Shown here one piece after another: positions 21,482 to 62,984 of a stretch of 64,000 bases of DNA (position 1 is the first letter of the stretch; every line of letters starts with the position of its first letter). The position numbers and the translations under genes are program-made. Below the pieces are notes generated by a model. That model had not been told where the DNA came from and searched no databases. It saw only the letters and a program-made list of their open reading frames with translations. The DNA comes from Microscillaceae bacterium (GTDB taxonomy: Bacteria; Bacteroidota; Bacteroidia; Cytophagales; Microscillaceae): the NCBI GenBank assembly GCA_025455045.1, contig JALONJ010000001.1:3642-67641 (forward strand). Reading direction: 5' to 3'.

Positions 21482-22972
21482 ATGAAAATCAAGATTTTAA
21501 CAATATTATTTTCAGTTTTTTTGCTCACCGCTTGCCAAGATTTTTTGGAGCGACCTCCCCTTGGGGAATTGACCGAAGCTAATTTTTTTCAGACCGAAAG
21601 AGACGCGCTCTTGGCAACTAATGCCATTTACAACACTTTGCGTGAATGGTTTTTGAGTGGCGGTTTTCCGCTCATTGAGATTATGGGCGATGATGCTACC
21701 AAAGGAAGCAATCCAACCGATGCCCCGCAAGTGGCTACCTACGATAATTTCACCTTCAACCCTAGCCAAGACTTGATTTTGGGAATGTACTCAACCCTTT
21801 ATAAAGGAGTTAGACGCGCCAATGCGGTCATTGAAAGAGTGCCACCTATTGCGATGAACGAAACCCTCAAAAGACGTTTGATTGGCGAAGCTAGATTTTT
21901 GCGGGCTTATTTTTATTTTGATTTGGTCAGGGCTTTTGGCGATTTGCCCAAAGTAACTACTACTTTGCCATCATTAAAACTAGCCCGCTCGCCCAAAGCC
22001 GAAATTTATAATGAAATCATTATTCCTGATTTATTATTTGCCATCGAAAATTTGGTAGAAAGAAGTGAATACCCTGCCACCGATATAGGCAGAGCTACCA
22101 AAGGCGGGGCAAGAGGCTTATTATCAAGGGTTTATCTGTTTTTGGGTGATTTTGTCAATGCCGAAAAATACGCACTTGAAGTCATCAACTCGGGGCAATA
22201 TGCTTTAGAACCTGACTATCAAAAAGAAATGAGCGTAGAAGGCGAACACGGACCCGGCTCATTGTTTGAGATTAGTGCCGTTTCGCAGGAATTTGGACTC
22301 GGCGGCAATCAATTTGGCAATACTCAAGGCGTGCGCGGCTCGCCCGACAAGGGTTGGGGATTTTGCCGCCCTTCCTTCAATTATTTGACTTTTATGGGCT
22401 ATCAAGCTAGTCCTGACCCTCGTATGGATGCCTCCGTGATTTTTTTGGGGGAAATATTGAATGGGGAAGCCTTGTTGGGTGATGCCGGTACGCCCGACGT
22501 TACTTATGCCGACCCACCTACCAATAGCATTATCAGAGAAATTGAATGTTATAATCAAAAAGTATTTGTCCCGGGGGCTGGCTCGCTTAGCTCTTGGGGG
22601 CATAACCGCAGAATTGTCCGCTATGCCGATGTTTTGTTGATGGCAGCCGAGGCAATGAACGAAAACGGCAAATCTGCTCAAGCCCTGCCTTATCTCAACT
22701 TGGTAAGACAACGAGCTAACAATGCTAATCCGGGTTCGGTGCCGAATATTACTGAAACCAATCAAGCCCCCCTTCGCCAAATCATTTGGAATGAACGGCG
22801 TAGAGAATTGGCTCTGGAAGGTCACCGTTTTTGGGATTTGATTCGTACCAATCGGGCTTCGGCAGTCTTAGGAAGCCTCGGCTTTGTAGCCAACAAACAC
22901 GAGCTTTTGCCGATTCCACAAATCGAGATTGACTTGTCGGAAGGTACACTCAGTCAAAATCCAAATTGGTAA
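21482..22972 (+). CDS. RagB/SusD-family nutrient uptake outer membrane lipoprotein
   Basis: 496 aa; lipobox LLTAC; 12 nt downstream of the SusC-like gene; SusD-like blocks (GEARFLRAYFYFDLVRAFGDLP, ERRRELALEGHRFWDLIR). Confidence 0.92.
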   Translation: MKIKILTILFSVFLLTACQDFLERPPLGELTEANFFQTERDALLATNAIYNTLREWFLSGGFPLIEIMGDDATKGSNPTDAPQVATYDNFTFNPSQDLILGMYSTLYKGVRRANAVIERVPPIAMNETLKRRLIGEARFLRAYFYFDLVRAFGDLPKVTTTLPSLKLARSPKAEIYNEIIIPDLLFAIENLVERSEYPATDIGRATKGGARGLLSRVYLFLGDFVNAEKYALEVINSGQYALEPDYQKEMSVEGEHGPGSLFEISAVSQEFGLGGNQFGNTQGVRGSPDKGWGFCRPSFNYLTFMGYQASPDPRMDASVIFLGEILNGEALLGDAGTPDVTYADPPTNSIIREIECYNQKVFVPGAGSLSSWGHNRRIVRYADVLLMAAEAMNENGKSAQALPYLNLVRQRANNANPGSVPNITETNQAPLRQIIWNERRRELALEGHRFWDLIRTNRASAVLGSLGFVANKHELLPIPQIEIDLSEGTLSQNPNW

Positions 22973-38998: not shown

Positions 38999-39048
38999 TT
39001 GATAATCCGCCAAAGGCGGGCAAGTTTTTAAGATGGGCTGATGTGCTA

Positions 39049-60957: not shown

Positions 60958-62742
60958 ATGGAACCGATTACAGGCTTAGATGCTACTTTTTTATATACCG
61001 AAACCGCCAATAGCCCAATGCACGTGGGCAGTGTGGCGGTGATAGAAGGCTCTTTAAATTTTGAAGACTTTAGGCAGGTTTTGCTCTCGCGCTTGCATTT
61101 AATCCCCAAATTGCGCCAAAAGCTGGTCCAAGTTCCCTTTAATATAGACTATCCTTATTGGGCTGATGACCCCAATTTTGATATTGATATGCACCTTCAG
61201 CATATTGCACTGCCTCAGCCCGGCAGTTGGAAAGAGTTGCGCAATACTGCCTCGAGTATTATGAGCGAACATCTCGACCGCTCGCGCCCCTTGTGGTCAA
61301 TTACTTTTGTCGAGGGCTTGAATAATATTCCGCAGGTTCCGGCAGGTTCGGTGGCTTTGATAGCCAAAATTCACCACGTAGCCATCGATGGAATGGCGGG
61401 CGCAGGTTTGTTGAGCTTGATTTTTGATTTTAGCCCCAAGCCGGCAAAGTTGCCCGCGCCCAAACCTTACGAACCAAAACCCTTTCCTGACCAGTTTTCG
61501 TTGATTTATAACAGTACGATGAGCTTTTTGTCTAAGCCCCTCAGACTGCCACAAGTCTTATCTGATGCGGTTTCGACTACTTTCAAACTGGGTTTTATGA
61601 ATCAAGCTCAAAATATTAAGTTGCCGATTGCGCCCTTTACGGCACCCCCCAGTGTTTTGAATCGAATTATCTCTCCACGAAGAAAATGGAATACGGCAAT
61701 CTTGTCGCTCGATCGCGTAAAAGCCCTCAAAGATGCGATGGACACTACGCTGAATGATGTGATTTTAGCAATTTGTTCGGGAGCTTTGCGGCGATATTTG
61801 TTAGAAAAAAAGAAATTGCCTTTAAAACCCTTGGTGGGAATGGTGCCAATCTCGACGCGAACTCCGGCAGAAAACCGTGATTTGGGCAATCAGATTTCTT
61901 CTATGCTGGTGCAATTGCCCACCCATATCGAAGACCCGATAGAACGCCTTGAGACTGTCCACGAAAATACCATTCGCGGCAAAATCTATCAACAGGCTTT
62001 GGGCGCAAAAACCCTCGCCAAACTTGCCGAAGCTGTTCCGTTTGGCATTGCCAATCAAGCGGCGCAATTGTACTCGCAATATCAAATCGCCGAAATGCAC
62101 AATCCCGTTTTTAATGTAACGATTACCAATGTACCGGGTCCGCAAATGCCTTTGTATATCAATGGGCATAAATTGCTCTCGGTAATGGGTATGGCACCTA
62201 TTATTGATGGGATGGGCTTGATAATCACTATATTCAGTTATAATGGCTTGATAACTGTCAGCCCTACCTCTGATGCCAATACGATGCCCGATATTGATGT
62301 ATTTACACGCTACTTGCGCGAATCGGCAAATGAGTTGGAAGCCGCTATCCAAAAACACCTAGCCGAAAAAGAATTGAAAAATCCCGAAGAGCCTCAAGAA
62401 TCACAAATAGATAAGCTCTTTGAGATGCTCAAAAACTTGCTCAAAAACAATGCCGAGCAAATACCGGCAAATAGCGGAGTTTTTCAGCTCGAAATTCAAA
62501 ATAAAAATACGCATTATTGGAAAATTGACTTGCGAAAATCGCCCGGTATCTTGAAAAAAGAAGAAGCCACCAAGCCCGATGTAAGCCTCAAAATCAAAGA
62601 AGAACACTTGAGCAGACTTTTGCAAGGTGAATTTGGCTGGGAAACGGCTTATGTGCAAGGTAGGCTGAACTTGGAAGGCGACAAAAACAAACTCAAGAAT
62701 CTTGATGCGATGTTTGCCAAAACCTTGGCAACCAATGCTTGA
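60958..62742 (+). CDS. wax ester synthase/diacylglycerol acyltransferase (WS/DGAT) with C-terminal SCP2 sterol-carrier-like domain
   Basis: 594 aa; LDATFLYTETANSPMHVG, active-site HHVAIDGMAG (HHxxxDG), NVPGPQMPLY; last ~100 aa (FQLEIQNK...AYVQGRLNLEGDKNKLKNLDAMF) look like SCP2. Confidence 0.85.
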   Translation: MEPITGLDATFLYTETANSPMHVGSVAVIEGSLNFEDFRQVLLSRLHLIPKLRQKLVQVPFNIDYPYWADDPNFDIDMHLQHIALPQPGSWKELRNTASSIMSEHLDRSRPLWSITFVEGLNNIPQVPAGSVALIAKIHHVAIDGMAGAGLLSLIFDFSPKPAKLPAPKPYEPKPFPDQFSLIYNSTMSFLSKPLRLPQVLSDAVSTTFKLGFMNQAQNIKLPIAPFTAPPSVLNRIISPRRKWNTAILSLDRVKALKDAMDTTLNDVILAICSGALRRYLLEKKKLPLKPLVGMVPISTRTPAENRDLGNQISSMLVQLPTHIEDPIERLETVHENTIRGKIYQQALGAKTLAKLAEAVPFGIANQAAQLYSQYQIAEMHNPVFNVTITNVPGPQMPLYINGHKLLSVMGMAPIIDGMGLIITIFSYNGLITVSPTSDANTMPDIDVFTRYLRESANELEAAIQKHLAEKELKNPEEPQESQIDKLFEMLKNLLKNNAEQIPANSGVFQLEIQNKNTHYWKIDLRKSPGILKKEEATKPDVSLKIKEEHLSRLLQGEFGWETAYVQGRLNLEGDKNKLKNLDAMFAKTLATNA

Positions 62743-62756
62743 TTGGAATGATAATG

Positions 62757-62788
62757 CAAGCGTCCGATTTCAAAAAATCGGACGCTTG
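62757..62788. terminator. hairpin terminator between the convergent WS/DGAT and M3 peptidase genes
   Basis: caagcgtccgattt caaaaaa tcggacgcttg followed by ttggtttct. Confidence 0.75.
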
Positions 62789-62854
62789 TTGGTTTCTATA
62801 AGTTTATAAATGATTTTAAATAAATATAAATATCTTATAATCCTCCAAAGGCGG

Positions 62855-62941
62855 GGTGCATTTCAAATTTACGCGTTTCTATTGCCTCACCCTAGCCCTC
62901 TCCAAAGGAGAGGGTTATAGGTAGTAAATTTGAAATGCACC
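62855..62941. mobile_element. 87-bp MITE (Family M) with perfect 17-bp terminal inverted repeats and 10-bp target-site duplication
   Basis: TIRs GGTGCATTTCAAATTTA (62855-62871) and TAAATTTGAAATGCACC (62925-62941); flanking direct repeats CCAAAGGCGG at 62845-62854 and 62942-62951; internal hairpin ccctctcc aaa ggagaggg. Confidence 0.8.
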
Positions 62942-62984
62942 CCAAAGGCGGACACAAGCAAATAGTTATGAAAAATGATCTTCA

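Follow-up and report, generated by a model that had tools for sequence, protein, structure and literature searches.

The window analysed here is a stretch of 64,000 nucleotides (C418:3642-67641) from the genome of an uncultured freshwater Bacteroidota (6.8 Mb, 697 contigs, 38.5% G+C). A WS/DGAT-SCP2 acyltransferase gene and an M3 peptidase gene converge there on a spacer of 242 bp, within which we found a MITE. Since it lies between convergent genes and downstream of a terminator-like hairpin, this insertion is probably neutral. The features of the locus, together with one related repeat copy elsewhere in the window, are as follows.

60958-62742, WS/DGAT-SCP2 acyltransferase gene, convergent with the M3 peptidase gene
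62757-62789, terminator-like hairpin, upstream of the MITE
62833-62853, plus strand, left half of a host repeat (...CTTATAATCCTCCAAAGGCG); the consensus of this repeat family is TTGAtAATCCTCCAAAGGCGGACACGGTCAg.tA.TTA
62846-62853, no strand, left copy of the target-site duplication, CAAAGGCG, 8 bp
62854-62942, no strand, MITE of 89 bp; identity to the 88-bp consensus of the family, 97.7%
62854-62872, plus strand, left TIR, GGGTGCATTTCAAATTTAC, 19 bp, with GCG as its next three bases, a triplet shared with the IRR of the likely partner IS
62896-62914, no strand, central hairpin, CCCTCTCC-AAA-GGAGAGGG; the consensus loop of the family is GAA
62924-62942, minus strand, right TIR, exact reverse complement of the left TIR
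62943-62950, no strand, right copy of the target-site duplication, CAAAGGCG, 8 bp
62951-62972, plus strand, right half of the host repeat (GACACAAGCAAATAGTTATG...), separated from the left half by the MITE
from 62985, minus strand, M3 peptidase gene, convergent with the WS/DGAT-SCP2 gene
39000-39025, plus strand, uninterrupted, diverged copy of the host repeat, named the empty-site paralogue in the original prediction

Boundaries, copy number and target duplications of the element

The original prediction had described an element of 87 bp with 17-bp TIRs and a 10-bp target duplication. All the strings on which this description was based were confirmed in place, namely GGTGCATTTCAAATTTA at 62855-62871 with its reverse complement at 62925-62941, the hairpin at 62896-62914, and the direct repeat CCAAAGGCGG at 62845-62854 and 62942-62951. 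Comparison with the rest of the family changed all three lengths. The 87-bp core was preceded by G in 262 of 274 copies and followed by C in 266 of them. Because these outer bases are conserved and one further inner base is paired, the MITE is 89 bp long and its TIRs are 19 bp long; they are perfect in the window copy, and the 19-bp TIRs are conserved across the 274 copies. The bases lying next inward of the right TIR are TAC; the corresponding triplet in the IRL of the IS described below as the likely partner is the similar TAT. The duplication was shortened to 8 bp. The target in the window reads c-CAAAGGCG-g, and its flanking C and G mimic the terminal C and G of the MITE, so that a 10-bp repeat is apparent; at the 87-bp boundaries, a duplication of at least 10 bp was present in only 3 of the 274 copies. 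The window copy alone cannot separate duplications of 8, 9, and 10 bp, whereas the family does.

The element has no coding capacity, as 89 bp leaves no room for an ORF, and the window contains no transposase gene near it, as had been noted earlier. When folded as RNA, the MITE formed one long hairpin of -48.4 kcal/mol (z = -9.8).

Subsequently, the family was counted over the whole genome. The exact 17-mer of the TIR occurred 398 times, and with up to two mismatches there were 331 left-type and 328 right-type termini. When termini 80-92 bp apart were paired, a minimum of 274 full copies was obtained from the 6.8 Mb of sequence, mostly with a core of 86-87 bp, and these were dispersed over hundreds of contigs. 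Their alignment yielded the 88-bp consensus, to which the copies had a median identity of 94%; 16 were at least 98% identical to it and 111 were 95-98% identical. The two orientations were represented without bias (144 versus 130).

Target duplications were then examined at the ends of the 89-bp element. Exact duplications of 8 bp were found at 157 copies and of 9 bp at 50 copies, that is, at 207 of 274 together, while random re-pairing of the flanks gave a chance level of 0.76 per 274. When one mismatch was allowed, the number rose to 242 of 274. The targets were AT-rich, with a mean G+C content of 27% across the 8-bp duplications. Only 11 of 248 reconstructed empty sites were located inside ORFs of at least 120 aa, compared with 435 of 600 random positions, and the insertions are thus almost wholly intergenic. 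The element is a genuine MITE, one of about 300 copies in this genome.

The same data bear on the explanation that the element is a REP/BIME-like repeat, a functional RNA, or a regulatory hairpin, with a RAYT-type enzyme or recombination, and not DDE transposition, as its means of spread. Its very stable fold and its confinement to intergenic DNA would suit such a repeat, and the genome is rich in other small palindromic repeats. REP-type elements, however, make no target duplications, whereas exact ones of 8 or 9 bp flank three quarters of the copies here. In addition, the MITE termini match those of a DDE IS, both orientations are present, and an Rfam search with the MITE returned no family near threshold. 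We regard this explanation as very improbable.

Empty sites in the interrupted repeats

The family of the interrupted host repeat is large, and other copies lie in the window at 22098, 29584, and 39010. In some of its copies an inverted arm, TGACCGTGTCTGCCTCTGG, lies upstream and gives an imperfect stem of 19 bp that includes one G-T and one C-A pair; the repeat may be another MITE or a structured element.

The string CCAAAGGCGG belongs to this second, dispersed repeat; it occurs 5 times in the window, against 0.3 expected, and has 232 matches genome-wide, 231 of which have full flanks. When the MITE and one duplication were removed, the remaining sequence read ...CTTATAATCCTCCAAAGGCGGACACAAGCAAATAGTTATG..., which is a copy of this second repeat. 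Furthermore, the junction 19-mer ATCCTCCAAAGGCGGACAC, which spans the insertion point, was intact at 88 other sites of the genome. The insertion of a MITE into a repeat module, as originally proposed, was therefore borne out for an element that is itself multicopy. The accompanying appeal to an empty-site paralogue was likewise upheld in principle. Judged by comparison of sequences, the reasoning stands at the level of paralogues (a "related empty site" argument) and is carried by the 88 intact junctions; the copy at 39000, which had been put forward for it, is only a diverged relative.

These paralogous junctions are the only empty sites available as evidence for mobility of the MITE. No orthologous empty site was found, as a JGI contig of the same organism and a Logan contig (SRR12684587) both carry the MITE, and homologues of the neighbouring WS/DGAT gene (89% and 78% identity) are followed by other genes and show no synteny. 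Neither a polymorphic MITE insertion nor a circle junction was seen in the assembled contigs compared.

The likely partner insertion sequence

The original prediction had suggested searching for an IS that shares the termini of the element, and such an IS was found, with ends identical to those of the MITE at 17-18 of 19 positions. Outside the short copies, TIR-like ends occurred at five contig ends of the genome (C318, C146, C232, C614, and C523). C318 and C146 carry GGGTGCAATTCAAATTTACTATGA (IS end A) 98 bp from the contig edge, and C232 and C614 end in GGGTGTAATTCAAATTTACGCGC (IS end B); each of the two ends is identical over 98 bp and is present at two contig ends. Pairing of these four contig ends by their duplications gave no match. 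In C523, the IS end GGGTGCAATTCAAAATTACTATGA is followed by an ORF, corresponding to a transposase N-terminus, that runs off the contig.

An identity search with this 70-aa ORF of C523 revealed a full IS of 1316 bp on a contig, L047, from the same JGI sample. Its termini are GGGTGCAATTCAAAATTACTATGA (IRL) and GGGTGTAATTCAAAATTACGCGC (IRR), and it is identical to C523 throughout its first 409 bp. The flanks of this copy were only 81-91% identical to the genome of the window; hence, its host is a related species within the same community. A tandem duplication affects the left IS end at C523:383-434, where GGTGCAATTCAAAATTACTATGATA is present twice head to tail; this sequence is single in the otherwise identical L047 copy.

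The L047 element contains orfA, encoding 70 aa, and downstream of it an ORF of 290 aa in the -1 frame, and this frame stays open upstream as far as the slip site. An A9 run marks the overlap of the two frames in L047 (895-903) and in C523, and in two relatives the -1 frame change falls on the A8 run CGAAAAAAAAG (L033, about 277-284; L040, about 459-466). The A8-A9 run matches the programmed -1 frameshift proposed for the ISMich2 group, and a frameshift is accordingly predicted here.

The fused transposase of 383 aa was compared with family profiles, among which ISKra4 (NF033572) was by far the best (E 4e-53), at 181 bits against a cut-off of 205. Relatives in L033, L040, L037, and a plasmid of Chondrinema litorale received the same assignment, and Pfam PF06782 (UPF0236) is present in many homologues from a large protein collection. 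With only the N-terminal 104 aa as the query, no NCBIfam family was hit and Pfam gave no meaningful match. Clean duplications of 8 bp flank two full-length relatives, one in L040 (TTACAATG) and the other in L038 (TTGGTTTA). The full-length IS contigs L033, L037, L047, and L050 had no matching duplication, and these may be chimeric repeat assemblies. The terminal C is conserved in the inverted repeats of the IS, which end in ...CACCC.

Guerillot et al. (2014, PMC3942029) divided the p-MULT 4 transposases into ISAzba1, ISMich2, and ISKra4 lineages. They described all ISMich2 elements as simple IS whose two-ORF transposase is restored by a conserved -1 frameshift, and they reported for p-MULT elements inverted repeats whose length is 18-39 bp and whose terminal cytosine is conserved, together with direct repeats of 8 or 9 bp (PMC3942029). 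The partner IS shares with the ISMich2 group (PMC3942029) a length of about 1.3 kb, two ORFs with a predicted -1 frameshift, inverted repeats within the 18-39-bp range with a terminal C, and duplications of 8 or 9 bp. It differs in that its transposase scores under the NCBIfam cut-off, and the likeness is to the description of the group; the window element, moreover, is non-coding. On the basis of the shared features and the best HMM match, the partner is likely to be an IS of the ISMich2 group within the ISKra4 family as defined by ISfinder.

A search of the binned genome with the NF033572 profile found no intact transposase gene. In the JGI assemblies, IS of this kind form separate contigs of 1.2-1.7 kb, and the shortest contigs of the genome assembly are about 2.5 kb, with none below. 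The transposase is likely missing from the bin because repeat contigs of about 1.3 kb fall under this 2.5-kb cut-off. As for other genomes, the matches of the IS end in 40 related genomes were all weak, AT-rich, and due to chance, the transposase N-terminus had no match in 24 other genomes of the same family, and an exact 32-mer of the IS end had no match in metagenome contigs.

We then compared the ends of the MITE with those of the IS. The right TIR is identical to IS end A at 18 of 19 positions and the left TIR to IS end B at 17 of 19. Closer still is the full-length IS in L038, the IRR of which is identical to the left MITE end at 21 of 22 positions. This element begins with GGGTGCATTTCAAATTG, in which the first 16 nt are identical to the MITE, as are 20-21 of the first 22. 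The three bases just inside the ends are GCG (IRR) and TAT (IRL) in the IS, mirrored by GCG and TAC in the MITE, and beyond position 22 or so the similarity is weak. Given the terminal identity and these mirrored bases, the MITE can be read as an internal-deletion derivative of the IS or as a passenger that shares its termini. Taken together, we infer, with a probability of about 0.85, that the MITE is a non-autonomous element which arose by internal deletion from an ISKra4/ISMich2-type IS of about 1.3 kb and is mobilised by it in trans.

The match of the termini is close and not exact, which leaves room for a real MITE mobilised by some other family that makes 8-bp duplications (IS256 proper, ISL3, IS1595, IS66, IS6, or IS1), the ISKra4-type likeness being coincidental or ancestral. 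No transposase gene with exactly the MITE termini was found, the IS ends differing from them at one or two of 19 positions, and many IS contigs are missing from a bin with a minimum contig of about 2.5 kb. Against this, the scan of the genome for TIR-like ends with up to two mismatches gave the ISKra4-type ends as the sole coding partner; the L038 relative shares nearly all of its terminal 22 nt with the MITE, and full-length relatives make the same 8-bp duplication. We therefore consider mobilisation by another family improbable.

Somewhat less improbable, though still unlikely, is that the family is extinct, the MITE being a fossil that is no longer mobile in a lineage with no active transposase. 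The duplicated IRL in C523 would fit such decay, as would a median divergence from the consensus of 6% and the failure to find an empty orthologous site or a polymorphism in two other assemblies of the locus. It is opposed by the 16 copies at 98% identity or more and the 111 at 95-98%, by the 76% of copies with a perfect duplication, and by IS ends that are identical over 98 bp, each at two contig ends; the division of the transposase between two frames is the normal state of the family (PMC3942029) and not a sign of decay.

Transposition mode, related elements and insertions into the hairpin

The original prediction had taken the parallel with the uninterrupted module as evidence of cut-and-paste transposition, a claim that found no support in the sequence, and relatives of the partner (IS256, ISLre2, and TnGBS) use circular intermediates (PMC3942029). 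Such intermediates are known or suspected across the p-MULT families and have been reported or inferred for the Mutator-like (IS256-related) superfamily (PMC3942029). By analogy with IS256, ISLre2, and TnGBS (PMC3942029), copy-out/paste-in via a circular intermediate would be expected here, and a replicative mode fits better with about 300 copies of the MITE. In the mechanism that we propose, -1 ribosomal frameshifting on the A8-A9 run would produce an OrfA-OrfB fusion as the transposase of the IS. This protein would bind TIRs of about 19 bp, GGGTG(C/T)A(A/T)TTCAAA(T/A)TTAC, and the MITE, having kept these TIRs, could be mobilised in trans. The element would be copied out as a circle and then integrated with a stagger of 8 bp, sometimes 9 bp, mostly into AT-rich intergenic DNA.

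In its general features the family resembles Correia, RUP, Nezha, and MITEAba12, which are likewise short, high-copy, intergenic elements with TIRs and target duplications that are mobilised in trans by a cognate IS. These differ from the present family in their parent families and in the length of the duplication, which is TA for Correia and RUP and 9 bp for MITEAba12. Within the Cytophagales, MITECca01 of Cardinium (PMC9769881) is also located mainly in intergenic regions or within other mobile elements. Its parent is ISCca4 of the IS982 family and its host is an endosymbiont (PMC9769881), whereas the parent here would be of the ISKra4/ISMich2 type and the host is free-living with a large genome. 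Guerillot et al. 2014 (PMC3942029) make no mention of MITEs, and neither ISKra4 nor IS256 appears in a review of prokaryotic MITEs from 2024; a full-text literature search for the TIR sequence gave no match. The MITE family appears not to have been described so far.

Among named relatives, the TopA protein of this genome matched those of Microscillaceae MAGs best, at 73% identity. Eight diverged copies of the MITE, with 76-87% identity, were found in a Cytophagales MAG, GFS_3895. A copy in an Arcicella sp. MAG (isolate Prado083) was considered as an independent occurrence and rejected. It is the sole MITE copy in that MAG, and its 6015-bp contig (JALONS010000337.1) is 100% identical to C482 and equal to it in length; hence, it represents the same contig binned twice and not horizontal spread, the contig probably being mis-binned in the Arcicella MAG.

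A second transposon was noticed during the analysis of the central hairpin. Its termini, CTAATCTCCCTACAGAA, were found at 83 ends, and it inserts into the apical loop of CCCTCTCC-NNN-GGAGAGGG hairpins with duplications of 9-11 bp that span the loop. Many of these landing hairpins are the central hairpins of MITE copies, the window copy not being among them. The copy at C513:635-2284 is 1650 bp long and encodes an IS4-family transposase of 464 aa (NF033590, 292 bits). Short derivatives of 137-274 bp also occur, and most ends lie about 95 bp from contig edges. Besides the C513 copy, examples of the insertions, all outside the window, are C323:4195-4447, C585:13757-13997, and C587:1965-2224. IS1397 and ISKpn1 similarly insert near the apex of small palindromic repeats (REP loops). 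IS1397 belongs to the IS3 family and makes duplications of 3-4 bp, whereas the element here is of the IS4 family and makes duplications of 9-11 bp.

Tentatively, and with somewhat less than even confidence, we put these elements forward as the first described MITE family of the ISMich2 group (p-MULT 4), present in about 300 copies in an uncultured Microscillaceae-like bacterium, with a hairpin that serves as the preferred landing pad of an IS4-family element. If this is true, they would form a two-tier nested transposon system and a natural set of substrates for end recognition by p-MULT transposases, and the little-studied ISMich2 group would gain a high-copy non-autonomous derivative. The target preference can be read from the 207 exact duplications, namely AT-rich DNA with 8 bp used more often than 9 bp. 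The MITE, its probable parent IS, and the IS4-family element also explain many contig breaks and part of the repeat mosaic, and probably the missing transposase genes. The practical value is for annotation of this genome, and there is no bearing on open questions of wider reach.

Two minor observations were made in the contigs of other genomes. In a scan with the 18-mer of the TIR, most of the matches listed were single and unrelated. Among them, the 18-mer GGTGCATTTCAAATTTAC was found inside a conserved block (GCACCCAACTTGCGTGAATGGGTGCATTTCAAATTTACATATAAAG...) at no fewer than eight gut-Clostridia loci (L014, L018, L019, L020, L024, L025, L027, and L030), from Lachnospiraceae, Ruminococcaceae, and other Clostridiales. 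The boundaries of this block are unlike those of the MITE, and it possibly represents one end of a mobile element that is unrelated or related only very distantly. The other case is a lone 20-bp terminus, GGTAAATTTGAAATGCACCC, located between two copies of CCCAAAAC in a Roseivirgaceae MAG (CAYNOT010000008.1; L026:1319-1354). This resembles a solo TIR with an intact 8-bp duplication and may be a deletion remnant or a footprint.
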